Source: an uncultured Holophagales bacterium (GTDB lineage Bacteria > Acidobacteriota > Thermoanaerobaculia > Multivoradales > UBA5704). Taken from it: a stretch of DNA of 64,000 nt. The translations under genes and the position numbers were made by a program. Location: NCBI GenBank assembly GCA_963842525.1, contig CAWJGT010000019.1:128001-192000 (forward strand). The letters run 5' to 3'. This document shows positions 8,972 through 38,489 of the stretch, in pieces; the stretch's first letter is position 1, and each line of letters begins with the position of its first letter. Under the pieces are notes generated by a model. The model made no database searches. It had not been told where the DNA came from and saw only the letters and a program-made list of their open reading frames with translations.

Positions 8972-9087
8972 GCGCCCAGGGTTCACACCCTGGGCTACCG
9001 AATGGCGCCCTCCGGGCTCACAAAGGCCTGGGATTCCAGAGCCCGGAGGGCGGAACTGGGTAGCCCCGGGTGTCAACCCGGGGTGAG
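8972..9087. repeat. GTAG-type REP doublet (family 2: GTAGCCCAGGGTGTGAACCCTGGG)
   Basis: Two inverted hairpin copies (cccagggttcacaccctgggctac...gtagccccgggtgtcaacccgggg) around an inner inverted pair; near-identical half at 34960-35008. Confidence 0.8.
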
Positions 9088-14526: not shown

Positions 14527-14559
14527 ATCGCCGATGAAAATGAAGGAGAAGGAAAGCCG

Positions 14560-15786: not shown

Positions 15787-15879
15787 GAGTGCGGGGCGTC
15801 CCGGAATCCGTGCGCCCCGCACTCTGTTAGATGCACCCGTGACATCTGGAAGATTCAGGTAGAAGAGTCAGGAGCAGCG

Positions 15880-17538
<1,659 letters not shown>

Positions 17539-19976: not shown

Positions 19977-20608
19977 TGCCGCCGCGGACCAAGCTGCTGG
20001 TGGGCGCCCTGGCCTTCCTCCTGCTGGTCACGGCCTGGGTCTATCTGCGCCCGGACGACGATGCCGGTGCGGTCGGCTCCACCGGAGCGCCGCCTGCCAT
20101 GGGCGCGGTCCCCGGGGCGCGGTCGACCGCGCAGAAACCGCCCGTGGAGCGCGTCGAGGAGCTGCGCGTCGCGGACCTCCTGGCGCGGCCCCGCAACGAC
20201 TCGCCGGGGCGCAACCCGTGGCTCTTCGTCGAGCCGCCGCCGCCTCCTCCCCCGCCGCCGCCTCCTCCGCCGCGCCAGCCGACAGCCGAAGAGCTCGAGC
20301 GGATGCGGCGGGCGCAGGAGGAGCTGGAGCGCCGGCGCCAGGAAGAGCTGGCCCGCCAGCAGGCCGAGGCCGCGATACCCAAGCCGCCGCCGTTCACCAT
20401 GGTGTACGTGGGGAACTTCGGCCCTCCAAGCCGGCGGATCGCGGTCTTTTTCGACGGCAAGGATACGATCAACGCCCTGGAGGGCGAAGTGATCGATGAC
20501 AAGTTCATCGTGGCCCGGATCGGCTACGAATCAGTCGACATCCAGTTCGCCGGTTTTCCCAACTGGCCGGCGCAGAGGCTGGCGGTCGGCCGTGCCGCCG
20601 TTCCATGA
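19976..20608 (+). CDS. PilP/GspC-like proline-rich protein
   Basis: TGATG overlap; TM, GRNPWLF, poly-Pro linker and C-terminal beta domain (YVG..G...IAVF...EGEVI). Confidence 0.6.
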   Translation: MPPRTKLLVGALAFLLLVTAWVYLRPDDDAGAVGSTGAPPAMGAVPGARSTAQKPPVERVEELRVADLLARPRNDSPGRNPWLFVEPPPPPPPPPPPPPRQPTAEELERMRRAQEELERRRQEELARQQAEAAIPKPPPFTMVYVGNFGPPSRRIAVFFDGKDTINALEGEVIDDKFIVARIGYESVDIQFAGFPNWPAQRLAVGRAAVP

Positions 20609-20621
20609 TGACGGAGGAAAG

Positions 20622-23180: not shown

Positions 23181-23217
23181 GCCGCCGCGCCCTGTTGGAC
23201 CTGAAGGAAAGGAAGAG

Positions 23218-23694
23218 ATGATGAAGAGCTTGTCGCGGCCCCGTTCCCAAGCGGGATTCACCCTGGCCGAGCTGGTCATGGTCGCGGCGGTCCTGACACT
23301 GCTCGCGGCCGTGACCCTGCCGGTCGCCAAGTTCACGTCGCGGCGCATGAAGGAGATGGAGCTGCGGGCGGCGCTGCGCGACATGCGCGCCGCCATCGAC
23401 GAATACAAGCGGTACAGCGACAACGGTCTGATCCCGGTGGACCTCGGCACGCAAGGCTATCCGGCCAAGCTGGAAATCCTGGTGGAGGGGGTCGAAATCG
23501 TGGGCCAGATCGACAAAAAGCTCAAGCCCCTGCGCCGGATCCCGATCGATCCCATGACCGGAGAGCAGGAGTGGGGCCTGCGCAGCTACCAGGACGATTT
23601 CGACGCGACCTCCTGGGGCGGCGAGGACGTCTTTGACGTCTATTCCCTCTCCGGCGGCGTCGGCTTGAACAAGGTGCCCTACAGCCAATGGTGA
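23218..23694 (+). CDS. Pseudopilin (GspG-like), prepilin N-terminal methylation site
   Basis: G|FTLAELV prepilin motif; YP..LE.LV; LRRIPIDPMTG. Confidence 0.9.
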   Translation: MMKSLSRPRSQAGFTLAELVMVAAVLTLLAAVTLPVAKFTSRRMKEMELRAALRDMRAAIDEYKRYSDNGLIPVDLGTQGYPAKLEILVEGVEIVGQIDKKLKPLRRIPIDPMTGEQEWGLRSYQDDFDATSWGGEDVFDVYSLSGGVGLNKVPYSQW

Positions 23695-23708
23695 GAGAGG
23701 AGAGGTCC

Positions 23709-24119
23709 ATGCGGGAGCGCGGCTTCACGCTGCTCGAGCTGATCATCGTCATTGCGATCATCGGCATCCTGGCCACGATCGCCATGCCGGCCCTCAAGGA
23801 CGTGCCGCGGCGGGCCAACGAGGCGGTCCTCAAGACCAACCTCCACACCATGCGCGACGTCATCGACCAGCACTACGGAGACAAGGGCAAGTACCCGACA
23901 GGCCTGGAGCAGCTCGTCGAGGCGGGCTACCTGCGCAGGGTGCCGGTCGATCCCATCACCAAGCGCAACGACACCTGGATCTTCGAATACGAAGAGGTCG
24001 ACCCCGAGAACCCGGGTCCGGAAAGCGACGAGAACGAGGACGGCCAGCCCGGGATCACCGACGTCCACTCCGGCGCGCCGGGCAACTCGCTCGACGGCAC
24101 ACCCTACAGCGAATGGTGA
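23709..24119 (+). CDS. Pseudopilin (GspG-like major pilin)
   Basis: G|FTLLELIIV; GKYP..LEQLVEAGYLRRVPVDP. Alternative start at 23688. Confidence 0.9.
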   Translation: MRERGFTLLELIIVIAIIGILATIAMPALKDVPRRANEAVLKTNLHTMRDVIDQHYGDKGKYPTGLEQLVEAGYLRRVPVDPITKRNDTWIFEYEEVDPENPGPESDENEDGQPGITDVHSGAPGNSLDGTPYSEW

Positions 24120-24949
24120 TGCCCTCTCCCCCTGGCCCCCTCTCCCGCGCGTCCGCCGCTCCCCCTCCCCGAGCGGGAGAGGGGGAACGCGGCTACAACC
24201 TGGTCATGCTGATGGTCATCGTGACCCTGCTCAACGTCGCGCTGGCCGCCTCGCTGCCGCTGTGGAGCCACGTCATTCAGCGCGACAAGGAAGAGGAGCT
24301 GATCTCGCGCGGCTTCCAGTACGGGGAGGCCATCCGCGTCTTCCAGTTCCGCTTCCAGCGCCCGCCCATCCGCCTCGAAGAGCTGATCGAGGTCAAGCCG
24401 CGCTCCATCCGCCGCCTGTGGAAGGACCCCATGACCGAGGACGGCAAGTGGGGCATCATCCTCGTGGGACAGTCTCCCATTCTGACGCCGCAGCAGCCGG
24501 GTGAGGAGCAGCAGGAGGATCCGGACGGGCGCCGGCAGGAGGGCAACGAAGAAGAAGAGGGCTCCGTGTTCGGACCCAAGAAGGGCGAAGAGGTCATGGT
24601 CGGACCGATCCGCGGGGTCTACAGCAAGAGCGGCAAGAAGTCGATCATCCTCTTCAACGGCCGGGAGCGCTATGACGAGTGGCACTTCACGGTCGACATG
24701 ATCCCGGGGGCGCAGGGGATGGGCGGTGTGCCGCCGCCGAACGGCGTACCGCCTCCGGGCGGGCCGCAGATGGCGGGCGGGCAGTTCTCTCTGAGCACCC
24801 GCTGGGTCGGCCGGCCGTTCCCCGGCTTCCTCCAGCAGCCGCAAATACCCGATCCCGGAGGCATCGGCGGCAATCCGGTCGGCATCGATCCCGGCAAGCT
24901 CGGCCCGCGCCGCCCTCCGCAAAAGCCATCTCCCCAGGAACCGGAGTGA
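24113..24949 (+). CDS. Minor pseudopilin-like T2SS protein with REP-derived leader
   Basis: G|[10 protein letters not shown] hydrophobic segment; RDKEEEL..RG; RRLWKDPMT; IRGVYS.S. Confidence 0.75.
24122..24186 (+). repeat. Family-1 palindromic repeat (CCCTCNCCCC..CCCCTCTCCC...GGGAGAGGGG), in frame in the pseudopilin leader
   Basis: ccctctccccctggccccctctccc...gggagaggggga. Confidence 0.75.
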
Positions 24950-26870: not shown

Positions 26871-28637
26871 ACCCCACCCGGCTCTCCAGCCGTCGGGCCC
26901 CGCCGGGTCCTCCTGCTGAGCCTCGACGGTGCGAGCGCCGAGGCTCTCCACCAGCTCTACCGCGAGGGGGCTCTCACCGCCGGGGGCTTCGCGCGTTTCT
27001 TCCAGAACGGACAGGTGGCGGACCGGCTCATCCCGGTGAACCCCACCCTCACCTCGGTCAACCACATCAGCCTGGCGACCGGTTTCGTCCCCGGCGCGAC
27101 CGGCATCGCCGGCAATCGCTTCCATCCGGCCGGCGCGCCGTTTCTCGACGTCGTGAGCGGCTTCGAGGCGCCGATCGAGACCGAGACGCTGTGGGAGGCG
27201 GCCCGCCGGCAGGGCAAACGGGTGGGCGTGACCACCTGGCCCGGCGCCGACAACAAGAACGAGCGCCGGCGCGGCGACTGGGGGATGATCTATGTCAACA
27301 ACCCGGACCGGGAGGCGGACCTTGAGGTCCTCGCCCGGAAGGACTGGCAGGAGCTGAACGGACCGGCGCCCGCGAGCTTCGCGCCCGCCCAGGCGGCACG
27401 AGTGCAGGTGGGTGGCAAGAAGCCGCAGGACTTCGAGCTGATCGCGGTCGACCGCACCGACGACGGCCGGACCGGCTATGACCGGCTGGTCGTGCGGACG
27501 GAAAGGGGCGCGGGGGAGCTGGTTCTGGGCGCCTGGAGCCGCGTCCCCTGTCCGGACCCCCAGCCGGGCCGCGAGGCGGAGACCGCGCCATGCTGGATCA
27601 AGCTCCTGCGGCTCACGCCCGACCTTGCAGACGTCCAGGTCTATTTCAACGGGGTCTACGGCAACCAGGCCTACCCGCAGGAGTTTCTGGGCGCCATCGA
27701 GCGGAGCGGCCTGCGCTGGCCCGGTGCGCCGGACGACGCCCTCCTCGACGACACCTGGAACGGTAAGCCGGGAATCGACCTCGAGACCTGGCTCGAGCAG
27801 TCGGAGCGCTTCACGGCTTTTTTCGGCGACAGCCTGCGGCTGGCGGCGGCCCGCCCGGACTGGGACCTGCTGATGGGCTACATACCGGTGATCGACGAGG
27901 CGGGGCACCAGTTCCTGCTCGCGGACCCGCGACAGAAAGGTTTTTCGGCGGCACGGCGCGATGAGCTTGCGGCGGCACGGCTGCGCGTCTGGCAGACGGT
28001 CGACCGCGAGCTGAACCGGCTGCTCGATGCTCTCGACCTGCGCAACACCGCCGTCGTCATCGTGAGCGACCACGGCATGCGGGCGGTCCATACCGCTTTC
28101 GATCCCAACGTGCTCCTGCGGGATTGGGGCCTCCTGACGGCAGACGAGAAGGGGCAGGTCGCGGACGGGACGCGGGTCTACGCGGTGAGCAACGGCGGGG
28201 TCTCGCATATCTACATCCGGCCCGACCTGCCGGGCGCGGAACGGGAGCGGCTCGTTGCCGACCTGCGCGAACGGCTCGCAGGCTGGACCCCCGGGACCGA
28301 AAAACCGACCGAAAAGCCCGTTGCCCAGATCCTCACTCGCGCCGAGCTCGGCCAGGTCGGTCTCGACCATCGCAACAGCGGCGATCTCGTCCTCCTCGCC
28401 GTGCCGGGGTGGGCCTTCGGTGGCGGCCTGCGGGAGGGGAAGGTCGTGCTGCCCTCGCCGGTCCATGGCATGCACGGCTACCGCAATGACGATCCGGCCA
28501 TGCACGGCATCTACCTGGCCGTGGGAGCGGGAATCCCCAAGGGGAACGCGGGCACGGTCCCCAACCCCGAGGTGGCCGGCCGAGTCGCGGCCTGGCTGGG
28601 GATCGAAAAACCGCAGGAACGGCCCCCGGTCCCCTGA
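26805..28637 (+). CDS. Alkaline phosphatase superfamily lipoprotein (nucleotide pyrophosphatase/phosphodiesterase)
   Basis: Lipobox LGSC; LLSLDG, PTLTSVNH.SLATG, DEAGH, IVSDHG and GMHGY motifs. Confidence 0.88.
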   Translation: MRRLVLLVPAAAFILLLGSCSSTPPGSPAVGPRRVLLLSLDGASAEALHQLYREGALTAGGFARFFQNGQVADRLIPVNPTLTSVNHISLATGFVPGATGIAGNRFHPAGAPFLDVVSGFEAPIETETLWEAARRQGKRVGVTTWPGADNKNERRRGDWGMIYVNNPDREADLEVLARKDWQELNGPAPASFAPAQAARVQVGGKKPQDFELIAVDRTDDGRTGYDRLVVRTERGAGELVLGAWSRVPCPDPQPGREAETAPCWIKLLRLTPDLADVQVYFNGVYGNQAYPQEFLGAIERSGLRWPGAPDDALLDDTWNGKPGIDLETWLEQSERFTAFFGDSLRLAAARPDWDLLMGYIPVIDEAGHQFLLADPRQKGFSAARRDELAAARLRVWQTVDRELNRLLDALDLRNTAVVIVSDHGMRAVHTAFDPNVLLRDWGLLTADEKGQVADGTRVYAVSNGGVSHIYIRPDLPGAERERLVADLRERLAGWTPGTEKPTEKPVAQILTRAELGQVGLDHRNSGDLVLLAVPGWAFGGGLREGKVVLPSPVHGMHGYRNDDPAMHGIYLAVGAGIPKGNAGTVPNPEVAGRVAAWLGIEKPQERPPVP

Positions 28638-28643
28638 TCCCTG

Positions 28644-29087
28644 CTATTTCTTCTTGTCCACGATCTCGGCCTGGAGAGGACCGATGGCGGCGAAGAGCTC
28701 TTCGCGCTCCTTGGGTCCGACCTTGAACTTGTCGAGGGTGGCGACCAGGTGCTTGACCGCGGTGTCCCAGTGCGCCTGGGTGATGCCCATACCCTTGTGC
28801 GAGGCCGTCATGCTGCGGCCGGTGTAATAGCACGGCCCGCCGCTCGCCTGGCAGAGCTGGTCGACCACGAGCTGGCGGATGCGCTGCAGCGACTCCGTGC
28901 TGTGGCCGGCGAAGAAGGGCCCGAGCTGCGGATCGCTCGCCATCCGGCCGATGAAGTCGTCGACCACGGCGGCGATGGCATCGTAGCCTCCCAGCCGCTT
29001 GTACAGGGAATCGTGGGCGGCCACGGGCATTGTCAGGCCGGCGATCCAGAGCAGCGCGGCCGTTGCGACGAGGATCTTCCTTTTCAT
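28644..29087 (-). CDS. Group I truncated hemoglobin with N-terminal signal peptide
   Basis: SLYKRLGG.DAI.AVVDDF, GGPC.YTGRSM..SH.GM.I; GGAGG RBS; signal MKRKILVATAALLWIAGL…VAA. Confidence 0.9.
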   Translation of the reverse strand: MKRKILVATAALLWIAGLTMPVAAHDSLYKRLGGYDAIAAVVDDFIGRMASDPQLGPFFAGHSTESLQRIRQLVVDQLCQASGGPCYYTGRSMTASHKGMGITQAHWDTAVKHLVATLDKFKVGPKEREELFAAIGPLQAEIVDKKK

Positions 29088-29109
29088 AGAGCCTCCTCCT
29101 TTCGAAACG

Positions 29110-30858
29110 CTATGCCTGGAGTACGGCGGAGAGAGGAGGTCCGGATGAATCGTCGTCGAGCACCTTGAGGAAAACCGCCTTGCCGTCGCCGGGGGCGTAG
29201 AAGTCGGGGAGCTCGGCGGCGAGCCGGTAGCCGCAGGAGAGATAGAAGCCGCGCGTCCCCGCGTACTGGGGACGGGTCGCGGTCTCGACATAGACCCGGG
29301 GACGGCCCGCCTCCGCCATCTGTTCCTCGGCGGCGCGGAGCAGGGCCGCGCCGACCCCTCGCCCCTGCTCCCGCGGGTGCACCACGATCCAGTAGAGGTC
29401 GGCCGACTCCAGGGTCCCGGGGATCGGGCCCCAGCAGGCATAGCCCGCCACCCGGCCGTCCACTTCGCCGACCAGGAACCGGTAATGGCTCGCCGCGCCG
29501 TGCGCGAGGCGGTCGTCCACCAGCTCCATCGCCACGTCGACCTCCTCGGCGTTGAAGAAGCCGGTCCGGCGGACCAGCTCCTCGATCGGCTCGCGGTCTC
29601 CAAGCTCCAGACCACGGAAGAGGGTCTCTCCTCTTCTCCCCTCTCCCGGGGGAAGGGGGGGCGATGGGAGAGGGGCCGGGGGTGAGGGGTCCGGGGGCGC
29701 CGCCCGGCATTCCCGTCGCCGATCACCGCGCAGCGCCGCCGCCAGGATCCTGCCGACGACCTGGCCCGGCGAGAGCCCGGCCCGGCCTGCGGCGGCCATG
29801 AATCCGGCGCCGGCCGCGAGACACGGGTTGGTGTTCACTTCCAGGATGCGCGGCTCTCCCGCGGCGTCCAGCCGGAGGTCGACCCGGGCATAGCCGGAGA
29901 CGCCGCAGATCTCCCAGGCGGCCCGTGCGAGCCCGCGGACCCGCTCGAGGAGCGGCGCATCGTTCGGGTCGCCGGGAAAGCAGCGCACCGTGTGCGTGTC
30001 GGCGAACGAGCCCTCCAGCCACTTGGCCTCATACCCCACTACGCGGGACATCCCGGCGGGGAAGTCGACGAACCGGATCTCGGCCACCGGCAGCACCTCG
30101 ACGCCACCATCGCCGTCGGCCAGCAGCGAGACGTTGAGCTCCCGGCCGGGGAGGAACTGCTCGGCGAGGATCGGCTGGCCGGGGAAGCGCTCGGCGAGAC
30201 GGGCGGCGCGGTCGAGGGCGGAGGCGCGGTCGTGGCACACCGGATCGCCTTCCAGGCCCACGGACGCGTCCTCCCAGGCGGGCTTGAGGATCCAGGGGGG
30301 CGGCACCCGGTCCAGCACCTCGGGCCGGGCCGGATCGAGCCGCCCGCCCGCGGCCACCGGCAGCCCCTCGGCGGCGAGCAGCGCCCGGGTGGCCAGCTTG
30401 TCCGTCGAGACCCAGAGCGGGCCGGCGGCCGTGCCCGTGAACGGGACGCCCGCAAGCTCCAGCGCCGCCGTGTGCGCCGCATGGAGCTGCGGGGCGCCCG
30501 GCGGCGCCTCGATCAGATGAAAGACGACCATGCCGGGCTCAGGGCGGATTCTCTCGAGGACCGCCGGACCGGCGACCGCGATGCGGACCGACGGCAGGCC
30601 GAGCTCCGCGAGCCCCGTCTCCACCAGCTCGACCTGGGCCAGGACGTCGGCCGTCGAGGGATCGTCGTCTTCGGTGACCGGGTTGTGAGCGATCAGGACC
30701 CGGACCCCCTCCCCTGACCCCTCCCCCGCGCGGCCACCGGCCCCCACCCCGAGCGGGAGAGGGGCACCGCCGCCCCCGTTCTCGTCCCCCCCTCTCCCGT
30801 TCGGGGTGGGGGCTGGCGGCCGCACGGGAGAGGGGGGCCAGGGGGGAGAGGGCTTCAC
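29110..30858 (-). CDS. D-Ala-D-Ala-ligase-like ATP-grasp enzyme fused to C-terminal GNAT acetyltransferase
   Basis: GTG overlaps the upstream stop; ATP-grasp motifs PFTG, DK, ILKP..EDAS.G, EQFLPGRE, YEAKW, GYARVDLR, LEVNTNP; GNAT motifs TGFF...EV, DLYWIVVHP..QGRGVG, VET, FY..GD.K. Confidence 0.85.
   Translation of the reverse strand: MKPSPPWPPSPVRPPAPTPNGRGGDENGGGGAPLPLGVGAGGRAGEGSGEGVRVLIAHNPVTEDDDPSTADVLAQVELVETGLAELGLPSVRIAVAGPAVLERIRPEPGMVVFHLIEAPPGAPQLHAAHTAALELAGVPFTGTAAGPLWVSTDKLATRALLAAEGLPVAAGGRLDPARPEVLDRVPPPWILKPAWEDASVGLEGDPVCHDRASALDRAARLAERFPGQPILAEQFLPGRELNVSLLADGDGGVEVLPVAEIRFVDFPAGMSRVVGYEAKWLEGSFADTHTVRCFPGDPNDAPLLERVRGLARAAWEICGVSGYARVDLRLDAAGEPRILEVNTNPCLAAGAGFMAAAGRAGLSPGQVVGRILAAALRGDRRRECRAAPPDPSPPAPLPSPPLPPGEGRRGETLFRGLELGDREPIEELVRRTGFFNAEEVDVAMELVDDRLAHGAASHYRFLVGEVDGRVAGYACWGPIPGTLESADLYWIVVHPREQGRGVGAALLRAAEEQMAEAGRPRVYVETATRPQYAGTRGFYLSCGYRLAAELPDFYAPGDGKAVFLKVLDDDSSGPPLSAVLQA
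29636..29690 (-). repeat. Family-1 palindromic repeat, in frame in the ATP-grasp/GNAT linker
   Basis: Reverse-orientation copy encoding PSPPAPLPSPPLPPGEGRRG. Confidence 0.8.
30706..30853. repeat. Family-1 inverted doublet, in frame just after the start codon of the ligase-GNAT gene
   Basis: Two inverted copies encoding PSPPWPPSPVRPP…GEGSGEG between the start and VRVLIAH. Confidence 0.8.
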
Positions 30859-31850
30859 AACCCCCACCGCTGCGCGGCGGCCTCCACGATCCGGCCGAGC
30901 AGCTCGGAGTAGGAGATCCCTGCCAGGCGGGACATGATCGGCAGGTCCGACGTGACCGGATGGAGGCCCGGCAGCGGGTTGACCTCCAGGAAGCACGGCT
31001 CGCCCGCCGTGTCGCAGCGCAGGTCCACCCGGGCCGCGTCGCGGCAGGAGAGAGCCTTGTAGACGCCGAGCGCCACCTGGCGCACCCGCACGGCCAGCGG
31101 CTCGCCGTCGAGAAGCTGGTAGTTGACCCGGGTCTGGAACTCCGCCTTGTTGAGGGCCGTGTAGTCGCCGTCCATACCGTCCTGAAAGACGACCTCCATG
31201 ACGCCGACCACCCTCGCATTCTCGCCGTTGCCGACGATCCCCACGGTCAGCTCGCGCCCCGGCAGATAGCTCTCGACCAGCACCGGCTGGCCGAAGGTCC
31301 GCAGCAGCTCGGTGCAGGCCTCATGCAGCTCGTCGCGGCTTGCCACGCGCGAGCGCGCCGAGATCCCTTTCGAGCTTCCTTCGGCCGCCGGCTTGACGAA
31401 GAGCGGCGGTGCAAGCTCCACCCGTGGCGCGTCCTCCGGCCGCTCCACCACAGAAAATGGCGCCGTGGGCAGGCCGTGGTCACGCACCACCCGTTTGGCC
31501 AGCGGCTTGTCGAGCGTCATCGCGCAGGTCAGCGGGTCTGAAAAGGTATAGGGCTGGTCGAACATCTCGCAGAGAGCGGGGACCTGGGCCTCCCGCGAGC
31601 GGCCGAGGATTCCTTCCGCGATGTTGAACACCAGGTCCCAGCGTTCTCCGGCGGTCAGGCGCCGCGCGAGCTCGGTCCCTCGCCCCACCCGCTCCACCCG
31701 ATGGCCGTTCTCGCGCAGCGCCTCCTCGATCCCGTCGATCGTGTCCTCCTCGTCGAGCTCCATCACCTGCTCGGCGGTATAGCCCGCCGCGCGGTAGTCC
31801 GACTTGAGGTCGTACGTCAGCGCAATCTGCAGTGGACGCAACGGGCGCAT
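30855..31850 (-). CDS. D-Ala-D-Ala-ligase-like ATP-grasp enzyme
   Basis: IALTYDL, DLVFNIAEG, SREAQVP, LDKPLAK, KP.AEGSSKGI, YLPGRE, ARVDLR and LEVNPLPGL motifs; start overlaps the kamA stop. Confidence 0.88.
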   Translation of the reverse strand: MRPLRPLQIALTYDLKSDYRAAGYTAEQVMELDEEDTIDGIEEALRENGHRVERVGRGTELARRLTAGERWDLVFNIAEGILGRSREAQVPALCEMFDQPYTFSDPLTCAMTLDKPLAKRVVRDHGLPTAPFSVVERPEDAPRVELAPPLFVKPAAEGSSKGISARSRVASRDELHEACTELLRTFGQPVLVESYLPGRELTVGIVGNGENARVVGVMEVVFQDGMDGDYTALNKAEFQTRVNYQLLDGEPLAVRVRQVALGVYKALSCRDAARVDLRCDTAGEPCFLEVNPLPGLHPVTSDLPIMSRLAGISYSELLGRIVEAAAQRWGL

Positions 31851-33013
31851 CAGCCGTGCTCGACCGGATCGATATATTGATAGGTCTCGCCGGCCCAGTT
31901 GCGCAGCTCCCAGGCACCGTCCTCGTGCCCGAGGATCGTTTCGGGTTGGACCGGGATCTTGCCGCCGCCGCCGGGCGCGTCGATGACATAGGTGGGGACC
32001 GCGTAGCCGGTGGTGTAGCCGCGGAGCTGCGCCATCAGGTCGAGGCCCGTGCCGATCGATGTGCGCAGGTGGCCGGTGCCCACCACCGGATCGCACTGGT
32101 AGAGGTAGTAGGGCCGGATGCGCAGCCTGAGCAGCCCATGGAAGAGGTCGCGCAGCGTTTCGGCCGAGTCGTTGACGCCCTGGAGCAGCACCGTCTGGCA
32201 GCCCAGGGGGATGCCGCCGTCGGCGAGCCGGTCGCAGGCTTCGGCCACCTCCGGCGTCAGCTCACGGGCGTGGCAGAAGTGGACCGAGAGCCAGACGCGG
32301 TGCTTGCGCAGGACCGACACCAGCTCCGGCGTGATGCGTTGCGGCAGGAAGCCCGGAATGCGCGTGCCGATGCGCAGAAAATCGATGTGTGGGATGGCCC
32401 GCAGCCGGCCCAGGAGCTGATCGAGCGTGGCGTCCGACATGAGCAGCGGATCGCCGCCCGAGAGGAGCACATCGCGCACCTCGGTGTGCTCTCTGAGATA
32501 GCCGAGCGCCGCCTCGACGCGGCGGCCGAGCGGCTCGAGCTCGCCCTGGCTCACCAGCCGGCTGCGCGTGCAATAGCGGCAATAGGCCGCGCATGTATCG
32601 AGCACCAGGAACAGCACGCGGTCGGGATAACGGTGCACCAGCCCTTCGACGACGCTCGCGTGGTCCTCGCCGCAGGGATCGGTCATATCGCCACGGCTCA
32701 CCACCAGCTCGCGCTCGACGGGGACGACCTGGAGCCGGAGCGGACAGCCCGGGTCTTCCGGATCGATCAATGCGGCGAAGTGCGGCGTGACGGCGACGGA
32801 AAACTTCTCGCTCGCCAGCAGCAGACCGCGCCGCTCCGATTCGGTCAACCGGAGGAACCTGTCGAATTGATCGAGGCGGGTCAGGCGATGGCGCATCTGC
32901 CACCGCCAGTCGTTCCAGCGCGCGGGATCATAGTCCTCGTTGAACAGGGCGCAGATCTCCTCGCGCCGCGTCAGGGTGTCGGTCAGGACCGCGGCGAACG
33001 CCTCCTGCTTCAT
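31850..33013 (-). CDS. kamA: KamA-family radical SAM aminomutase (lysine 2,3-aminomutase-like)
   Basis: WNDWRWQ, GLVHRYPDRVL, CAAYCRYCTR, SGGDPL, QTVLL.GVND, PYYLYQCD and DAPGGGGKIP (PLP lysine) motifs. Confidence 0.9.
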   Translation of the reverse strand: MKQEAFAAVLTDTLTRREEICALFNEDYDPARWNDWRWQMRHRLTRLDQFDRFLRLTESERRGLLLASEKFSVAVTPHFAALIDPEDPGCPLRLQVVPVERELVVSRGDMTDPCGEDHASVVEGLVHRYPDRVLFLVLDTCAAYCRYCTRSRLVSQGELEPLGRRVEAALGYLREHTEVRDVLLSGGDPLLMSDATLDQLLGRLRAIPHIDFLRIGTRIPGFLPQRITPELVSVLRKHRVWLSVHFCHARELTPEVAEACDRLADGGIPLGCQTVLLQGVNDSAETLRDLFHGLLRLRIRPYYLYQCDPVVGTGHLRTSIGTGLDLMAQLRGYTTGYAVPTYVIDAPGGGGKIPVQPETILGHEDGAWELRNWAGETYQYIDPVEHG

Positions 33014-33177
33014 TTCTCTCGTCTCCTCTGGGAGGAAGGGAGTGATAGATCCGGCTCCGCGGTATCCGCGGTATTCGCGACGGCGGAGGTCCGGCGACCG
33101 GCGGTTCGAAAGCCGACAACCCACCAGGCTTGATCACCCGGTTGGAAAGCCCCTGGGGGCTCCGTGAACATGATCGT

Positions 33178-33363
33178 CTAACGCGTTAGCCCGGTCGTAC
33201 GGCACCGCGGACTGGAGAGGTCCACGAGCGCCTGGGCCAGAGGTGGGAAGGTCGGGACGTCAAAAGGGAAGACACTGCCCAGCGACCCGCGCCGGACAGC
33301 CGCAAAGGCCACGCTGTCGAGGGTACTTGGAGGTTGGTCGGGGGCCACGCTCACGTCGTCCAC
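33178..33363 (-). CDS. Putative leaderless small ORF (61 aa) upstream of kamA
   Basis: GTG lies 7 nt after a TATCGT -10 element that has a TTGACA -35; no recognisable domain. Confidence 0.35.
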   Translation of the reverse strand: MDDVSVAPDQPPSTLDSVAFAAVRRGSLGSVFPFDVPTFPPLAQALVDLSSPRCRTTGLTR

Positions 33364-33370
33364 GTGCTTT

Positions 33371-33398
33371 ACGATAGCGGAACTCTTCCTGCTGTCAA
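33371..33398 (-). promoter_or_regulatory. Sigma70-type promoter for the kamA operon
   Basis: TTGACA (33398-33393), 16-nt spacer, TATCGT (33376-33371). Confidence 0.6.
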
Positions 33399-33487
33399 GA
33401 GAAAGTTTCTCTTCCGGACCAAGTCGTTGCGAGGCCGGCCGCGGGCTGTTTCAATGATCCGTTCGGTCCCGGATAGAATACCCGGCC

Positions 33488-33925
33488 ATGACCGAACATC
33501 GCGAACACCAGCCCACCATCTTCGACAAGATCCTCTCGGGCGACATCCCGAGCTACAAGGTGTACGAGGACGAGCACGTCCTGGCCTTTCTCGACATCGG
33601 CCCGCTCTCGGACGGCCACACCCTGGTCATCCCCAAGGAGCGCAAGGCGCAGCTTCACCAGCTCTCCGACGAAGCCGCCGCCGCGGTCGGCCGCGTGCTG
33701 CCGAGGATCTGCCGCGCTGTGATGCGCGCCACCGGCTGCACCGACTACAACATCCTCCAGAACAACGGCACGGCCGCCCACCAGGTGGTGATGCACGTGC
33801 ACTTCCACATCATCCCCAAGTTCGGCAACGAGGGGCTGGGAATCCTGTGGCCGGCCCGGAAGCTCTCCGAATCGACCGCCCGCGAGCTGGTCGACAAGAT
33901 GCGCAAGGCCCTGGAGAGCGCGTGA
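33488..33925 (+). CDS. HIT family nucleotide hydrolase
   Basis: TIFDKI..GDIP, AFLDI.P...GHTLVIPK and histidine triad HVHFH. Confidence 0.93.
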   Translation: MTEHREHQPTIFDKILSGDIPSYKVYEDEHVLAFLDIGPLSDGHTLVIPKERKAQLHQLSDEAAAAVGRVLPRICRAVMRATGCTDYNILQNNGTAAHQVVMHVHFHIIPKFGNEGLGILWPARKLSESTARELVDKMRKALESA

Positions 33926-34959: not shown

Positions 34960-35008
34960 TCGCCCAGGGTTCACACCCTGGGCTACCGAATGTCGCCCTC
35001 CGGGCTCG
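34960..35008. repeat. Family-2 REP copy
   Basis: cgcccagggttcacaccctgggctaccgaatgtcgccctccgggctc, nearly identical to 8972-9018. Confidence 0.85.
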
Positions 35009-35051: not shown

Positions 35052-35339
35052 GGTAGAGACGCCCCAGTCCATGACCACGAAACGACCGGTGCACGCCCGT
35101 CGGGGCGTCTCACTCACGGCCCCAGCGACCACCAACGCTGGCACCACGCCACGAACGCCGAGATGGGCCCCGCCCCGCTGTACGCAAATGGCTGGCGGGT
35201 GGCCGTCCCGGCGGCGCACAGCGGCCCCGGGCGGTGTTTTCCTGCGCGAGGACGAACCCGTTTTCGCCGGCGAGGCCATGAGACGCCCCGACTGTGTGCA
35301 CCCGGTAGTTTTGTGGTTACGGACTGGGGCGTCTCTACC
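35052..35339. repeat. Family-3 GTAG-REP inverted doublet (REPIN-like)
   Basis: GGTAGAGACGCCCCAGTCC…GGGGCGTCTCA at 35052-35112 and its inverted copy at 35279-35339, around a ~165-bp spacer. Confidence 0.8.
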
Positions 35340-38253
35340 CCGCCCCGTTTGGGTGGTGCGGAATGGTTCCCTCCAACCACCCCACCTCCCGCTCCCGCCG
35401 CACATACCCGGTCTCGTTCACCAGCGCCCGCGCCCGCGCCACATACCGCCGCGCCGCGGCGAGGTCCCCCTGGTCCCGGCAGAGGCGCGCCCACTCCAGG
35501 TGCGCGTCGCACTCATGAAGCCGCATCGGGCCGCGCTCGGCGATCTCCAGAGCCTCGGTGAGGTCCGCCTTGGCGCCGGTAAAGTCGGAACGGAAGCGTC
35601 GAAGGGCGGCGCGGGCCAGAAGGCCGCGGGGCAGGTCGTCCTCCTGTCCGGCCCGCCGCAGGCCGTCCACCGCACGGTTCAGGGACTCGACGGCCTGGGC
35701 GAGCCCGGCGGTGCGGTCCTCCCCGGGGGCCGTCAGGGCCAGGCCGAGGTGGGCGCGGCCCAGGGTGAGGTGGTCGAGGGCGATGTCGAGGAGGGAATCG
35801 CCCGGCACACGCCATTCAAAGAGTTCCCTCGCCCGCTCCATCACCTCCCGGCAGGCTTGGCGGAACCGCTCGGCCTCCTGTGGGCGGGAGCCCGGCCCGG
35901 CGAGCCCGTCCAGCCCGGAACCGCCCTCCGGCTCCGCCCGGCCCAGCAGCAGGTCGCAGTACTGAGAACCCTGGAGCGAGTAGAGCCGGGTGTACTGCGG
36001 CTGCCGCTCCGCCTGCATCGTCTCGGCCTCGCGGAAGGCCGCCGCGCTCTCCTCCCACCGGCCCGCTTGGTGCAGGGCATCGGCCCATGTCGTTCGGTTG
36101 ACCATCCGCCGGAAGGCATCGCCGCTGCGGTCGGCCAGCTCGACGCTCTGCTCACCGAACGCCACGGCGCGCGGCACCTCCCCCAGGGTCAGGGTCAGCT
36201 CGCTGAGGTTGCTGGCGATGATGGCAGCTTGCTTCCAGTTCTCCTGGGCGATGCCCGCCTCCAGCCCTGCCTCCATCGGCTCGACCGCCTCCGCCAGGCG
36301 GCCCAGGGCGCGCAGGACGAAGGCGGCCTCGTTCAGAACGAACGCCTGCCACTCTGCTCTAAGGCGGAGGGAGGGCTGCGACCAGGGGCGATCGAAGAAC
36401 CCCGCCAGCGCCGTCAGCTCCGACCCGAAGGCTCCGAGCTTGCGCGTGCTGTAGAACTCCGCCCTCCGCAGGCTCCGCCGCCAGTAGACCTCGTTCATCG
36501 CCTCCTGCTGCCGTCCTGCCCGGCAGCCGTGGACCACGGCAGCGTAGAGCGGCTGCATCGCTTCCAGGCTGTCGGGGAGGTCCGGCGCTGCCTGGCGAAG
36601 CTGCTCGTAGAGGCGCCGGTTGCCTTCCTGCCAGGCGTCGGGGCGGTGGCTCTCGAGCTCTTCCGCGAAGCAGGCGCGCACCAGAGGATGGGCATCGAGG
36701 GTCTCCGGCTCCCGCGCATCGGCCGCCGCCAGCAGGCTGTGGTCTCGCAGGGTGCTGACCGCCAGGTGCCAGTCCTCGTCCGAAAGGCCTACCAGAGGCT
36801 CGGTAAGCCCGGGGATTGGCGGCGCGGCACGCAAGGCCTTCAGGGCTGCGGCCTCGGCCGGCCGGTCGAAGAGGCCGAGGAGGCGGAGGATCGCCAGCTC
36901 CGGTCCCTCGCCCAGCCAGCGGGCATAGGCTTCGATCACGCGAAAGGCGTGGCCGCCTAGTTTCTTATCAGCCTGATGGAGGTCGATCTCGCGGCGCTTG
37001 CGGACATCGCCGCCGTGCACCCGCCGCAGGAAGTTGCCGAGAAGGGTCATGGTGAGGGCGTGCCGCTGGAAGTCCTCGGCCGCGGCGCGCAGATCTTTCT
37101 CTCGTCCGTCCACACCCAGCTTGCGGAGCAGGTCCACGGCCGCGTCCAGGCCTAATTCCTCCAAATGGACCTGCGGCGCCGTGCTCGGGGAGCCGGCGAG
37201 GTCGGCGATCCGTTCCCTTGTGGTGACCACGCAGAGGCCCGGGTTGGCCCAGGCCAGATTCTTGAGCAGGGCGGCGAGGCCAGGGTCCTTGAGGCGGCCC
37301 TCGATCTCCTGCCGGCCCGGCGGGTATTGCAGGGGCTCGATGCCGTCGAGGATGAGGAGGCTGCGTTCCTTCCTGATCAAACCGGCGAGGCGGGCACCGC
37401 GGTCGTGCAGGGAGCCGGCCTTGGGGTCGGAATCTCCGAAGAAGCGGAGCGCGTAGTCGATGAACGGCTCGGCGGAAGTGTTCTGGTCTTTGCTCCCCTG
37501 GCTGTAGAACGACCAGGCGAGCGCCCGCATGGCGCCGCGCCAGCTGTCGGCTGCCATGCGGTCCAGCCAGTGTGCGACCAGCGCTGACTTGCCGATGCCT
37601 CCGAAGGCCACGAGGGTGAGGACGTGGATGGATGGGTCGTCCCAGGCGGCATCGAGGCGGGTGAGCTCCGCTTCACGGCCGACGAAGTGCTCGCCGGGGA
37701 TGGGCAGGCGGCCGAGGTCGAGAGTGGGGGTCGAGGTGGCGGGAGTCCTCACCCCCGGCCCCTCTCCCATCTCCCTCCCACCCTGGCCCCGGGAGAGGGG
37801 AGAAGGCAGCCTTAATAGATCCCGAATCTCCAGGGCCAGAGCGGTGAGATCCTCCTCGACCTTGACTTTCCGACCCTTCGAGAGAGGCCGGCCGTCCTTT
37901 GGGCGGCACTGGGTCGCCGCAATCCACTCGACGGCCTGCCACGGGCACGGGTGGATGATGAGTGGGATGATCCGCAGGCCATCCTGTGCCCGGCGTTGGA
38001 GGAGGCTAGGCACCTCCGTGCCGCGGATGAAGTCCGAGGTCAGGAAGTCGGCCGAGATGAGCAGCACAGCGGCCTGGGCATCTTCCATGGCCGTCTCGAT
38101 CTCGGCGCGCCAACCGTCGCCTGCTGCGATCTTCCGGTCGTCCCAGACTTCGAGGTCTCCCTCCAACTCAAGGACGCGTAACTGCCGGACGAGCCGGTTC
38201 TTCCAGGTCTCGTCCTGATGGCTGTAGCTGATGAAGACCCGCGGGCCGCTCAT
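35335..38253 (-). CDS. TIR domain - STAND NTPase - TPR protein (bacterial NLR/Avs-like)
   Basis: VFISYSH.D, WDDRKI.AG..W, LLISADFL.SDFI...E (TIR); FVGRE.EL, GGIGKS (Walker A), LLILDGIE (Walker B), VVTTR; C-terminal TPR helices. Confidence 0.88.
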   Translation of the reverse strand: MSGPRVFISYSHQDETWKNRLVRQLRVLELEGDLEVWDDRKIAAGDGWRAEIETAMEDAQAAVLLISADFLTSDFIRGTEVPSLLQRRAQDGLRIIPLIIHPCPWQAVEWIAATQCRPKDGRPLSKGRKVKVEEDLTALALEIRDLLRLPSPLSRGQGGREMGEGPGVRTPATSTPTLDLGRLPIPGEHFVGREAELTRLDAAWDDPSIHVLTLVAFGGIGKSALVAHWLDRMAADSWRGAMRALAWSFYSQGSKDQNTSAEPFIDYALRFFGDSDPKAGSLHDRGARLAGLIRKERSLLILDGIEPLQYPPGRQEIEGRLKDPGLAALLKNLAWANPGLCVVTTRERIADLAGSPSTAPQVHLEELGLDAAVDLLRKLGVDGREKDLRAAAEDFQRHALTMTLLGNFLRRVHGGDVRKRREIDLHQADKKLGGHAFRVIEAYARWLGEGPELAILRLLGLFDRPAEAAALKALRAAPPIPGLTEPLVGLSDEDWHLAVSTLRDHSLLAAADAREPETLDAHPLVRACFAEELESHRPDAWQEGNRRLYEQLRQAAPDLPDSLEAMQPLYAAVVHGCRAGRQQEAMNEVYWRRSLRRAEFYSTRKLGAFGSELTALAGFFDRPWSQPSLRLRAEWQAFVLNEAAFVLRALGRLAEAVEPMEAGLEAGIAQENWKQAAIIASNLSELTLTLGEVPRAVAFGEQSVELADRSGDAFRRMVNRTTWADALHQAGRWEESAAAFREAETMQAERQPQYTRLYSLQGSQYCDLLLGRAEPEGGSGLDGLAGPGSRPQEAERFRQACREVMERARELFEWRVPGDSLLDIALDHLTLGRAHLGLALTAPGEDRTAGLAQAVESLNRAVDGLRRAGQEDDLPRGLLARAALRRFRSDFTGAKADLTEALEIAERGPMRLHECDAHLEWARLCRDQGDLAAARRYVARARALVNETGYVRREREVGWLEGTIPHHPNGAG
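37747..37803 (+). repeat. Family-1 palindromic repeat, in frame in the TIR-NTPase linker
   Basis: cctcacccccggcccctctcccat…gggagaggggag; encodes SPLSRGQGGREMGEGPGVR on the minus strand. Confidence 0.85.
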
Positions 38254-38489
38254 TCGTGTGCTCCTGGGGACACGAAGATTGTAGCGGAAGGGGCCTCCTC
38301 TCTCTCCCGCACTCCCACCTGATTGTGTTGTGCTTGTTCGCGCTATGGTACGCAATCAATCCGGGCAGCGCGAGCGGAGGCTGGACCGAGCCGCTCCACG
38401 GTGTGCTCTGCAATAGCTGGCTTCTCCAAGAGCTGATCCAGGAACGGGAGCATTGCAGCCTTGCACAGCTACGCTGCCGAACATTCTGC

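Follow-up and report, generated by a model that had tools for sequence, protein, structure and literature searches.

A widespread operon of a KamA-type aminomutase, two Ddl-like ATP-grasp ligases and a GNAT acetyltransferase as candidate pathway to a small N-acetylated beta-lysine amide

Introduction

Which compound is formed by an operon that combines a KamA-type aminomutase with two Ddl-like ATP-grasp ligases and a GNAT acetyltransferase, and how is its expression controlled? These questions are raised by a locus of an uncultured Holophagales bacterium located in the window, i.e., the whole stretch of 64,000 nucleotides of DNA that was analyzed. Literature searches found no characterized product for this architecture, as an earlier note on this DNA had stated. 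In our best reading the four activities encoded in the operon would yield a small N-acetylated beta-lysine amide. That this is a widespread, hitherto uncharacterized operon for such a compound, either a peptide or a conjugate, which is leader-controlled in Acidobacteriota, appears to us on balance somewhat probable.

Results and Discussion

Organization of the operon

Three co-oriented genes are present on the minus strand, namely kamA (31850..33013), lig1 (30855..31850) and a fused lig2-GNAT gene, which extends from 29110 to approximately 30747. The gene order, whose conservation elsewhere the earlier note had left to be checked, was found as KamA-Lig1-Lig2/GNAT in 73 of 80 related loci, which according to the record titles are mostly MAGs from soil and peat. 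Six of the seven loci without the full order are interrupted by contig ends and the last one (L043) is fragmentary. Together with natural fusions that chain the parts, this order bears out the view that kamA, lig1 and lig2-GNAT form one functional unit. The operon occurs across the whole class, is single-copy and is syntenic with housekeeping neighbors, of which HIT and ADH accompany it in about half the loci. A Pfam scan of the 43 neighboring ORFs in the window detected neither mur nor fts genes and neither epmA nor efp, in agreement with the earlier description of the surroundings.

Translational coupling of the genes had been proposed as well. The overlap of kamA and lig1 exists, with the kamA stop codon TGA (31852-31850) and the lig1 ATG (31850-31848) sharing one base, whereas the overlap ascribed to lig2 (30855-30858) is a feature of the ORF only and is doubtful. 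This ORF is open to 30858 and 30996, but its first approximately 50 codons fall in a REP-like palindromic element of the lig1-lig2 gap (30718..30835, no strand assigned), an inverted repeat with 47-nt arms that are 89% complementary. The same codons are missing from 13 of 13 aligned homologs, which begin 5-20 residues before 'RVLIAHNPV', and homologs of the entire fused protein cover residues 52-567 only. In the AF2 model the first approximately 50 residues of Lig2 are disordered (pLDDT ~30) and residues 52-382 are confidently modeled. Because of the palindrome and the later start of the homologs, the GTGA at 30855-30858 is probably not the start of lig2; the GTG at 30747 is the more likely one and would leave a spacer of ~107 nt. 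The palindrome family CCCTCTCCC-N(8-38)-GGGAGAGGG is represented by seven copies in the window, compared with zero expected.

The span 28644-33013, which had been taken as one unit, needs to be narrowed, since it includes a separate and unrelated globin gene (28644..29087, minus strand). It encodes a truncated, bacterial-like globin of 147 aa (Bac_globin, 60.6 bits) with its own SD and an ATG at 29087, and the N-terminal hydrophobic segment, read by eye, is a putative signal peptide. No match to this globin was found in the 80 related loci at E<1e-10; the gene may be co-transcribed here, yet it lies outside the conserved cluster. The globin gene is followed by a terminator-like hairpin with a T-run (28614..28634, minus strand), for which two overlapping matches stand against 1.7 expected in shuffled sequences, and which is weak evidence because the number is close to that expectation.

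Characterization of the encoded enzymes

KamA (387 aa; Pfam LAM_C and Radical_SAM) is a radical SAM/PLP aminomutase which by family and by its retained residues is of the lysine type. It passes the NCBIfam subfamily model TIGR00238 (328, cut-off 199) and scores highest with the lysine model (AblA 445, Glu 389, Arg 375). The protein remains under the cut-off of the AblA equivalog TIGR03820 (445.3 vs. 525.4), which counts against our best reading, and under that of the EpmB equivalog (245.2 vs. 369.3). In the alignment to PDB 2A5H (E = 6e-120) the CxxxCxxC cluster, the PLP lysine and two Asp residues are all present, and the equivalents of D293, D330 and K337 are kept, of which we take the two aspartates to bind the epsilon-amino group and the lysine to be the PLP lysine. 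C268 is replaced by Ser and the C-terminal Cys cluster is missing. Within 73 KamA orthologs 'DAPGGGGK' is present in 73 and 'Q[CA]D' in 72. The earlier note had considered either beta-Lys or beta-Glu as building block; since KamA has lysine-type residues and its highest score with the lysine model, beta-lysine is favored and beta-glutamate is less so.

Lig1 (331 aa; Dala_Dala_lig_C, 119 bits) and Lig2 both belong to the Ddl superfamily. The best NCBIfam Ddl scores are 167.6 and 136 for Lig1 and 94.8 and 76.7 for Lig2, with cut-offs of 243 and 245.65, respectively, and all Van models score <105 for the ligases against cut-offs of 495-775. With scores far below every Ddl/Van cut-off and no cell-wall genes nearby, the objection that the enzymes might be housekeeping Ddl proteins did not hold. 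In DdlB we take the ATP lysine, R255, D257, E270 and N272 to be the ATP-grasp catalytic residues and E15, S150, Y216 and S281 to bind D-Ala. Both ligases contain the motifs R-V-D and E-V-N, which do not vary among the orthologs, and in Lig1 the K, E, R-x-D and E-x-N residues of catalysis are invariant in 27 orthologs; since these ATP-grasp residues are invariant, both ligases are probably active. The D-Ala site gave a mixed result for Lig1, which keeps the P-G...T-S segment, including Gly and Ser positions that presumably belong to the second-substrate site of Ddl, and whose N-terminal motif YDLKxDY is not alignable with GGxSxE. In Lig2 E15, S150, Y216 and S281 are replaced by S/T, A, W and G; its nearest folds, among the top structural matches listed, are Ddl enzymes (target TM 0.83). 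As D-Ala-D-Ala, D-Ala-D-Lac or D-Ala-D-Ser ligases Lig1 and Lig2 were rejected, based on the scores below the cut-offs and on the loss of the D-Ala residues in Lig2.

The fused gene is a single ORF ending at 29110, with Pfam matches to Dala_Dala_lig_C (66 bits) and Acetyltransf_1 (54 bits). On the minus strand it comprises the Lig2 domain (29704..30747), a variable, disordered linker (29632..29703) with an in-frame REP-like palindrome at 29639-29674, and the GNAT domain (29110..29631), which terminates with TAG (29112-29110). The fusion, already recognized in the earlier note, is genuine and conserved, as 120 of the 120 homologs listed carry both Pfam domains, while the linker (residues 383-409, pLDDT <50) is not alignable among homologs. 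The GNAT domain matches PDB 2R7H (E = 3.8e-32), which was deposited as 'putative D-alanine N-acetyltransferase', and keeps a Q-G-R-G-V-G motif, presumably the acetyl-CoA loop. Its best NCBIfam match is RimI, with 43.5 bits against a cut-off of 86.4, and no AblB model is found among its 12 NCBIfam matches at E<=0.01. An identity with AblB was rejected on these grounds. That the GNAT domain is not AblB-like counts against our best reading.

Natural fusions and distribution

Fusions were detected for each neighboring pair and for a longer chain, i.e., KamA-Lig1, Lig1-Lig2, Lig2-GNAT and Lig1-Lig2-GNAT. They span several bacterial phyla, and KamA-Lig1 proteins are additionally found in archaea. 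Of 120 long KamA homologs, 71 carry a Lig1-like domain, with sources including Syntrophobacteraceae, Desulfoferrobacter, Magnetoovum, Omnitrophota, Clostridia, Methanocellales and Woesearchaeota; KamA-GNAT fusions, for example from Dehalococcoides, also occur in this group. Among 149 further matches listed for 50%-identity representatives, 110 had the length of Lig2-GNAT (470-570 aa) and nine were Lig1-Lig2 fusions; two proteins (P0390 and P0423) comprise Lig1-Lig2-GNAT. Long Lig1 homologs are numerous (1619 at E<=1e-20) and tandem Lig1-Lig2 fusions are very common among them, accounting for 64 of 121 long homologs. Lig1 may not always be a beta-lysine user.

The tandem fusions lend indirect support to the earlier idea of a heterodimeric ligase, and a complex prediction for Lig1-Lig2 supports it weakly, with a score of 0.47 compared with 0.00 for the best of three controls, agreement of the runs in at least 73% of the contacts and a partner pLDDT of at least 83. 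Of 157 solved complexes 116 reached the pass mark of this prediction, as did 2 of 215 mismatched pairs; at scores <=0.60 just 18 of the 157 solved complexes passed, as well as both mismatches. As Ddl homodimers have been solved, the result may reflect likeness rather than binding.

A conserved leader with two upstream ORFs

What is new here is a conserved promoter followed by two tandem leader ORFs, read as translated, 5' of kamA. The earlier note had missed this leader. The sigma-70-like promoter (33371..33398, minus strand; TTGACA 33398-33393, 16-nt spacer, TATCGT 33376-33371) agrees with the consensus in 10 of 12 positions and is the sole promoter-like match in 28400-33700, where shuffled sequences average 0.3 matches. 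Both hexamers are conserved in an alignment of 27 leaders.

The first ORF, uORF1 (33178..33363, minus strand), is near-leaderless, starting with a GTG at 33363, 7 nt past the -10 box, and ending after 61 codons with TAG (33180-33178). It contains the motif A-P-D-Q-P-P-S-T. The in-frame pattern GA.[CG]A[AG]CC.CC.AG[TC] was found in each of the 65 leaders examined and shows synonymous variation: Asp is encoded by GAC in 58 and GAT in two leaders, Gln by CAA in 48 and CAG in 13, and the second Pro by CCG in 34, CCA in 19 and CCC in 12. Nine loci were left out of this count, of which four have the motif, three lack it and two are not assessable. In 50 of the 65 leaders codon 10 encodes the first Pro. 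Conservation is confined to the N-terminal ~16 residues, including a P-S-[TS]-x-D segment, and the remainder of uORF1 varies in sequence and length.

After 4-20 nt, mostly 6, the stop codon of uORF1 is followed by the invariant ATG (33171) of uORF2 (33010..33171, minus strand; 53 codons, peptide start MFTEPPGAF), whose stop TGA (33012-33010) overlaps the kamA ATG. The distance between both ATGs ranges from 92 to 164 nt with 24 distinct lengths in the 65 leaders; modulo 3 it equals 2 in 52 leaders and 0 in 13, and no leader gives 1. In 54 of 65 leaders no stop interrupts the uORF2 frame, and another 10 have one only within the last three codons, compared with 26 and 10 stop-free leaders for the other two frames. 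Within the main clade uORF2 contains PPG and PPD; outside this clade its P-P motifs are not conserved, which counts against our best reading. Since the C-terminal part is variable and only the frame with respect to kamA is maintained, uORF2 bears the signature of a regulatory leader. At the level of RNA structure, whole-leader folding is no better than that of shuffled sequence (z = +1.15) and a candidate CCUCC-SD pairing has one compensatory change and two broken pairs, both of which count against our best reading. None of the Rfam models (lysine, Na+ and c-di-AMP riboswitches and others) matched 28400-33600 at E<=1.

The nearly invariant [D/E][Q/E]-P-P-S motif, which is new to us, suggests ribosome-mediated control, and kamA expression in Acidobacteriota is probably set by the two leader ORFs. 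Transcription would begin at the conserved promoter, and ribosome passage over proline-proline sites, among them codons 10-11 of uORF1, could govern kamA expression through uORF2, which ends on the kamA start codon. The signal could be Pro-tRNA, the activity of EF-P or the product itself. TnaC and SpeFL are known arrest-peptide attenuators. With these and with MgtL/MgtP of Salmonella the present leader shares short ORFs with proline motifs in a long region before the regulated genes, but it differs in having two tandem ORFs, the first near-leaderless and the second ending on a start codon, and in that no terminator or antiterminator is established. MgtL, a proline-containing leader peptide, is linked to EF-P and EfpL in one study (PMC11611912).

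Proposed pathway and comparison with known systems

In the proposed pathway, whose order of steps is based on the collinear order of genes and natural fusions, KamA would convert L-lysine into beta-lysine, as its family membership and substrate residues indicate. Lig1 would form an ATP-dependent amide bond involving beta-lysine and Lig2, with a nucleophile site unlike that of Ddl, presumably a second one, and the GNAT domain would acetylate a free amine using acetyl-CoA.

The AblA/AblB system of methanogens (YodP-KamA in Bacillus) likewise combines a lysine-type aminomutase of the KamA family with a GNAT in one operon. It produces N-epsilon-acetyl-beta-lysine, whereas in the present operon two ATP-grasp ligases are inserted between both enzymes, the GNAT has no AblB match, and KamA is under the AblA cut-off and does not have the Cys cluster that LAM carries at its C-terminus. 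In the NAGGN osmolyte pathway, the bifunctional N-acetylglutaminylglutamine synthetase Ngg (GNAT/ATP-grasp) also unites a peptide ligase and a GNAT in a single polypeptide for an N-acetylated small peptide. Its domain order is the reverse of that in Lig2-GNAT, and the present operon differs by its Ddl-type ATP-grasp domains, by a second ligase, by an enzyme that forms a beta-amino acid and by the absence of an AsnO-like amidotransferase nearby. The ligases resemble Ddl and VanA in their fold and in the residues for ATP/Mg catalysis, but neither their scores, the replaced N-terminal substrate motif and the D-Ala residues lost from Lig2 nor the genomic context correspond to these enzymes. In EpmB/EpmA, a beta-lysine formed by a KamA-family enzyme is ligated in an ATP-dependent manner too, and the polyproline theme recurs in the leader peptides; the differences are ligases of the ATP-grasp instead of the aaRS-like type, a KamA not of the EpmB type, the presence of a GNAT and the archaeal fusions. 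An osmolyte role of the product is a guess. One publication regards ablA as a gene for osmoprotection that is controlled by a riboswitch (PMC9337991). The window contains no transporter or other osmolyte gene and nothing that points to an osmotic function.

Alternative functions

Two other explanations would likewise give the leader peptides a role. A secreted or ribosome-targeting beta-lysine natural product, with the leader as a product- or drug-sensing arrest element, would match the occurrence of beta-lysine and related beta-amino acids in ribosome-binding antibiotics, the resistance and biosynthesis genes commonly governed by arrest-peptide leaders and the ATP-grasp ligases that build several peptide antibiotics. 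We consider it unlikely, as exporter, resistance, NRPS/PKS and tailoring genes are absent from the window ORFs and conserved neighbors, and the single-copy, syntenic, class-wide operon is unlike a typical accessory biosynthetic cluster. Negamycin is called ribosome-targeting in a preprint, in whose text KamA appears 16 times and beta-lysine 10 times. By analogy with RimK/RimI, the ATP-grasp enzymes could also take the place of EpmA and attach beta-lysine to EF-P, to EfpL or to a ribosomal protein, and the P-P leader peptides would report polyproline translation in a feedback loop. According to the literature, ribosomes stall at diprolyl motifs and require EF-P there, beta-lysine serves to activate the EF-P of E. 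coli, and EfpL is reported in Acidobacteria, Thermodesulfobacteria and the PVC group, overlapping with the taxa of Lig1-like clusters. The P-P-S motif at codons 10-11 of the near-leaderless uORF1 in every leader examined, PPG/PPD in the main-clade uORF2 and RimI as best NCBIfam match of the GNAT would fit as well, yet the RimI score is far under its cut-off and KamA reaches 445 bits with AblA/LAM against 245 with EpmB (cut-off 369). Neither efp nor epmA nor an EF-P loop motif was detected in the window and in the 80 loci, and the window showed no aaRS-like or EF-P protein. KamA-Lig1 fusions occur in archaea, from which EF-P is absent to our knowledge; moreover, acetylation would neutralize the charge that the known EF-P modifications provide, and Ddl-type active sites are small-molecule sites. 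Such a modification is in our view decidedly improbable.

The Ddl-type fold and sequence of both ligases, the Gly and Ser of the second-substrate site in Lig1 and the putative D-alanine N-acetyltransferase annotation of the GNAT's PDB homolog could instead point to the cell envelope, where an unusual dipeptide, possibly with beta-lysine, would enter peptidoglycan or another wall polymer. This is very unlikely, considering that no mur/dcw, van or fem genes were found in the 43 window ORFs, nor mur/dcw or van genes among the conserved neighbors of the 80 loci, that the scores are far under every Ddl/Van cut-off, that fusions occur in archaea as well, and that N-acetylation would stop further peptide extension; we also know of no beta-lysine as a wall component. 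Two ATP-grasp ligases, a GNAT and small, conserved ORFs immediately upstream mirror mdnA-D, and with the P-S-[TS]-x-D segment of uORF1 they might suggest a microviridin-like RiPP, whose precursors would be cross-linked by the ligases and N-acetylated by the GNAT. Against this, the ligases are of the Ddl type, with 0 of 38 PDB sequence matches of Lig1 being graspetide ligases and the top listed structural matches of Lig2 all being Ddl, KamA enzymes work on free amino acids, only the N-terminus of uORF1 and the frame of uORF2 are kept, and KamA-Lig1 fusions indicate metabolite hand-off between enzymes, which makes a RiPP highly improbable. The microviridin-type graspetide was rejected, as PDB sequence and fold matches are to Ddl or PurD only and the uORFs are conserved at the N-terminus or in frame only. 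That KamA merely initiates lysine fermentation, as KamA-type enzymes do in clostridia, with the other genes unrelated, is hardly credible given that fusions bind KamA to ligases and that kamDE, kdd, kce and kal homologs are absent from the window and the conserved neighbors.

Significance

Our best reading thus remains the N-acetylated beta-lysine amide. A more far-reaching version is possible but doubtful, according to which the locus is the acidobacterial form of a bacterial and archaeal pathway to a new class of N-acetylated beta-lysine peptides, combined with a new two-part ribosome-sensing attenuator whose stall reads EF-P/Pro-tRNA status or the action of the product on the ribosome at the proline-proline site. 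The module is present in Acidobacteriota, Thermodesulfobacteriota, Omnitrophota, Nitrospirota, Firmicutes and some archaea, and we found no described product for it. Identification of the compound would establish a further family of metabolites and give a function to thousands of genes annotated as 'D-alanine--D-alanine ligase' or 'GNAT family'. The leader provides a testable example of translation-coupled control via proline-proline motifs, and the compound might explain the stress tolerance of abundant soil Acidobacteriota.

Organization of the Operon in the Window

The region 28644..33013 lies within a window of approximately 70% G+C. As the earlier note had claimed, it carries kamA, lig1 and the gene for the fused protein Lig2-GNAT; the number of ORFs, however, is four and not three, the additional one encoding a globin. 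All four are located on the minus strand. The aminomutase KamA (31850-33013; LAM_C and Radical_SAM in Pfam) starts with an ATG preceded by GGAGGAGA and is followed by Lig1 (30855-31850; Dala_Dala_lig_C, 119 bits) and by Lig2-GNAT, one long ORF with its end at 29110 which combines Dala_Dala_lig_C (66 bits) with Acetyltransf_1 (54 bits). The proposed overlap of kamA and lig1 at 31850 was confirmed, one base being common to the KamA stop codon and the Lig1 ATG. The globin gene (28644-29087; Bac_globin, 147 amino acids) is a separate gene with its own SD sequence. It starts 22 nt past the GNAT stop codon, and a terminator-like hairpin (28614-28634) then follows. A hydrophobic N-terminal segment of the globin was judged by eye to be a candidate signal peptide, a feature that bacterial-like (truncated) globins do not usually have. 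None of the 80 related loci has a globin gene adjoining the operon.

A second overlap, with a GTG at 30858 on the Lig1 stop codon, is doubtful. The ORF can be extended to this position, but four results oppose it as a start: 13 aligned Lig2-GNAT homologs begin only 5-20 residues before the conserved sequence "RVLIAHNPV", and the listed homologs cover about 88% of the query; the extra 50 codons sit within an inverted repeat with 47-nt arms (30718-30835); this repeat is one of a family of palindromes in the window; and the extra N-terminal residues have a pLDDT of about 30 in the AF2 model. The likely start of Lig2-GNAT is GTG 30747. The repeat includes a member (30790-30834) of a REP-like, G+C-rich palindrome family, CCCTCTCCC-N(8-38)-GGGAGAGGG, of which the window contains seven copies versus zero expected, the others being located at 24138-24183, 29639-29674, 37760-37799, 53097-53133, 53172-53209 and 59532-59567. 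The palindrome in the lig1-lig2 spacer thereby creates a spurious N-terminal extension of the Lig2 ORF. The copy at 29639-29674 is in frame, within the variable disordered linker joining the ATP-grasp and GNAT domains; low-complexity "PLSH/PRERG" linkers similar in kind were seen in some homologous proteins (P0084, P0006).

The neighboring genes are housekeeping or unrelated and encode T2SS/pilus components, a phosphodiesterase, HIT, Zn-ADH, a TIR-STAND protein, LPS functions and enolase. The absence of a mur/dcw context and of efp and epmA was borne out, as none of mur, fts, efp or epmA was found among the window neighbors in Pfam.

Further Features of the Window

The stretches 20496-24949 and 13819-17538 (plus strand) hold the gene for a secretin with a C-terminal cohesin domain and TPRs, three pilin-like genes with N_methyl motifs that come after it, and a T2SS E/F pair upstream. 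In 13 of the related loci (e.g., L019) a similar secretin-cohesin protein is encoded downstream of the operon. The ORF at 35335-38355 (minus strand) codes for a STAND-like protein of 1006 amino acids with TIR_2, AAA_16 and TPR domains and without an NCBIfam match. STAND-like TIR/AAA/TPR architectures are typical of anti-phage defense or signaling NTPases. Two matches to the Acido-Lenti-1 RNA on the plus strand, at 34963-35006 (directly 3' of the Zn-ADH gene) and at 8975-9018, reached 41.3 and 41.0 bits with a gathering score of 37, in line with acidobacterial DNA. At 55761-57245 (plus strand) a B12-binding radical SAM protein is adjoined by an M28 peptidase with a transferrin-receptor-like dimerization domain; it is unrelated to the operon.

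Conservation of Gene Order and Natural Fusions

The 80 loci were obtained by a profile scan of species-representative genomes with the Lig2-GNAT homolog alignment, the scan patterns lying within the GNAT domain. As labeled, 78 belong to Acidobacteriota, mostly Thermoanaerobaculia and also Holophagae, Terriglobia and Sulfomarinibacteraceae, one to Calditrichaeota and one to an "uncultured bacterium." With the window proteins as tblastn queries, 73 of the 80 showed KamA, Lig1, Lig2 and GNAT arranged and oriented as in the window, so that the gene order is kept elsewhere. Six of the seven exceptions end at a contig edge within or just before Lig1, and the seventh, L043, gave fragmentary matches only. 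Upstream, roughly half of the loci have HIT and ADH genes as a divergently oriented pair (HIT in 38, ADH in 36, by ORF clustering). A class I SAM methyltransferase of 246 amino acids is encoded on the kamA strand between HIT and the leader promoter in 34 of the 80 loci (7310-8050 in L014), but the window lacks it. The enzyme might use the product as its methylation substrate, or it may have nothing to do with the pathway. A tblastn search of plasmids with Lig2-GNAT detected nothing but remote ATP-grasp genes and the ddlB gene of E. coli, at about 30% identity.

The fusion of Lig2 and GNAT is present in all 120 close homologs listed. An exhaustive HMMER search of 50%-identity representatives gave 9781 matches at E<=1e-3; among 149 further matches listed, 110 have the length of the fusion (470-570 amino acids) and nine (637-731 amino acids) contain two Dala_Dala_lig_C domains, the N-terminal half being 45-52% identical to Lig1 and the C-terminal half 34-43% identical to Lig2. 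Among 120 listed KamA-related proteins of at least 679 amino acids, 71 carry a Lig1-like domain of up to 56% identity, mostly C-terminal as in the operon order; in five the ATP-grasp domain is nearer to Lig2 than to Lig1, and about 26 have a GNAT of another, AblA-AblB-like type (Pfam). The KamA-Lig1 fusions derive, among others, from Syntrophobacteraceae, Desulfoferrobacter, Magnetoovum, Omnitrophota, Clostridia, Eubacteriales, Methanocellales and Woesearchaeota.

We further classified 121 long proteins, namely the 120 listed long Lig1 homologs and P0321 from the KamA set. By BLAST, 64 are Lig1-Lig2 proteins and 50 have a second domain nearer to Lig1; two are Lig1-Lig2-GNAT triple fusions (P0390, 944 amino acids; P0423, 834 amino acids). 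In the remaining four Lig1 homologs (P0394, P0399, P0414, P0426) a Lig1 domain with 60-63% identity is joined to a PurD-like ATP-grasp domain where Lig2 would be expected; the two that were scanned, P0394 and P0414, reached 77-86 bits with the purD model, versus a cut-off of 288. P0321 contains KamA alone among the query domains; in NCBIfam it is a genuine AblA (761 bits) joined to a genuine PurD (323 bits). All five PurD variants may represent alternative second ligases or gene-calling artifacts.

The order of the fusions is collinear with that of the operon, KamA, Lig1, Lig2, GNAT, and this is our main argument for a single pathway in which a metabolite would be passed along the enzymes in this sequence. 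Together with the kept gene order it supports the proposal of the earlier note that the genes act as one pathway.

Properties of the Encoded Enzymes

KamA passed the KamA subfamily model of NCBIfam (328 against a cut-off of 199) and stayed under every equivalog cut-off (AblA 445/525, Glu 389/650, Arg 375/600, EpmB 245/369). Compared with the Clostridium subterminale LAM (2A5H; E = 6e-120), KamA keeps D293 and D330, the ligands of the lysine epsilon-ammonium group, and the PLP-binding K337 at the corresponding positions; Ser replaces C268, and the chain stops short of the C-terminal Cys cluster. The two motifs concerned occur in 72-73 of 73 orthologs. Because of these conserved positions and motifs, lysine is favored as the putative substrate. 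A role of KamA in lysine fermentation was dropped, since its partner genes are missing from the window and from the genes conserved around the operon.

Ddl enzymes are the nearest relatives of Lig1 and Lig2 in sequence and fold. Membership in the housekeeping Ddl, named in the earlier note as a refuting case, is not supported: both ligases stay well under the cut-offs of all Ddl/Van models, and no mur gene was found nearby. Each ligase retains the ATP lysine and, for Mg and phosphate, the R-x-D and E-x-N residues, all of them invariant across its orthologs. In the alignment Lig2 lacks equivalents of E15, S150, Y216 and S281 of E. coli DdlB; in Lig1 the P-G...T-S segment is kept and the N-terminal motif differs (YDLKxDY). 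The suggested heterodimeric ligase received weak backing from the complex prediction of Lig1 with the Lig2 ATP-grasp domain, which passed with a score of 0.47 (best control 0.00) in a calibration passed by 116 of 157 solved complexes and 2 of 215 mismatches, with 18 of the 157 and both mismatches at <=0.60. Since Ddl enzymes are known to form homodimers, likeness alone may account for the pass.

The GNAT domain gave no AblB match and is related to PDB 2R7H (E = 3.8e-32), deposited as a "putative D-alanine N-acetyltransferase." Nothing relevant on 2R7H, Dde_3044 or a D-alanine N-acetyltransferase was found in the largely open-access literature covered.

A Conserved Leader with Two Upstream Reading Frames

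A stretch of approximately 475 nt separates kamA from the divergent HIT gene, and its DNA sequence is conserved in more than 45 loci. A promoter, TTGACA-16-TATCGT (33398-33371, minus strand), was located by an alignment of 27 leaders and a consensus scan. The first leader frame, uORF1, begins at a conserved GTG 7 nt past the -10 box (ATG in other clades) and comprises 61 codons here. Its motif x-P-[D/E]-[Q/E]-P-P-S-[S/T] was found in all 65 leaders examined, the first Pro being codon 10 in 50 of them; among nine loci outside this count it is present in four, absent in three and not assessable in two. The third codon positions of the motif vary synonymously (CCA, CCG, CCC; GAC, GAT; CAA, CAG), a pattern that suggests selection acting on the putative uORF1 peptide.

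The uORF1 stop codon is separated by 4-20 nt, mostly 6, from the invariant ATG of uORF2. The distance from this ATG to that of kamA, modulo 3, is 2 in 52 leaders, 0 in 13 and never 1 (65 leaders, 24 lengths). In 64 of the 65 the uORF2 frame meets no stop before the last three codons ahead of kamA, versus 26 and 10 for the other two frames. Hence uORF2 would in most loci terminate in an ATGA that includes the start codon of kamA; in a few loci the two share a reading frame. As the frame differs among loci, one long ORF across the whole leader was rejected. In the main clade the uORF2 peptide starts with M-x-T-E-P-P-G-A-F-P-P-D-D; other clades are without these P-P motifs but retain a GCCC...GGGC hairpin.

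The whole leader folds no more stably than shuffled sequence (z = +1.15), and Rfam gave no match to operon or leader at E<=1. RNAalifold on 27 leaders predicted just 11 pairs, which make up the short hairpin GCCC/GGGC, another hairpin with two compensatory pairs and a CCUC-GAGG pairing with the kamA SD sequence (one compensatory change, two mismatches). Because this support is weak, a riboswitch is not claimed. We read the leader as a putative translated, ribosome-sensing control region.

Putative Product and Role

The proline-proline motifs of the leader invite a reading that involves EF-P, since this factor rescues ribosomes stalled at diprolyl sites and in E. coli itself carries a beta-lysine modification. 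MgtL is a precedent for a proline-codon leader responding to EF-P or EfpL (PMC11611912). The LAM type of KamA, the GNAT in the operon and the KamA-Lig1 fusions in archaea argue against protein modification and make it a minority hypothesis.

The best-supported reading of the operon is instead a putative pathway for the biosynthesis of a beta-lysine amide carrying an N-acetyl group. Nearest to it in logic are AblAB, an aminomutase with a GNAT, and NAGGN synthetase, which combines an ATP-grasp enzyme with a GNAT. A search of largely open-access literature for links between an aminomutase and ATP-grasp enzymes found nothing related. One report handles ablA as an osmoprotectant gene controlled by a riboswitch (PMC9337991). 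By analogy to AblAB and NAGGN, an osmolyte-like role of the operon product is plausible.
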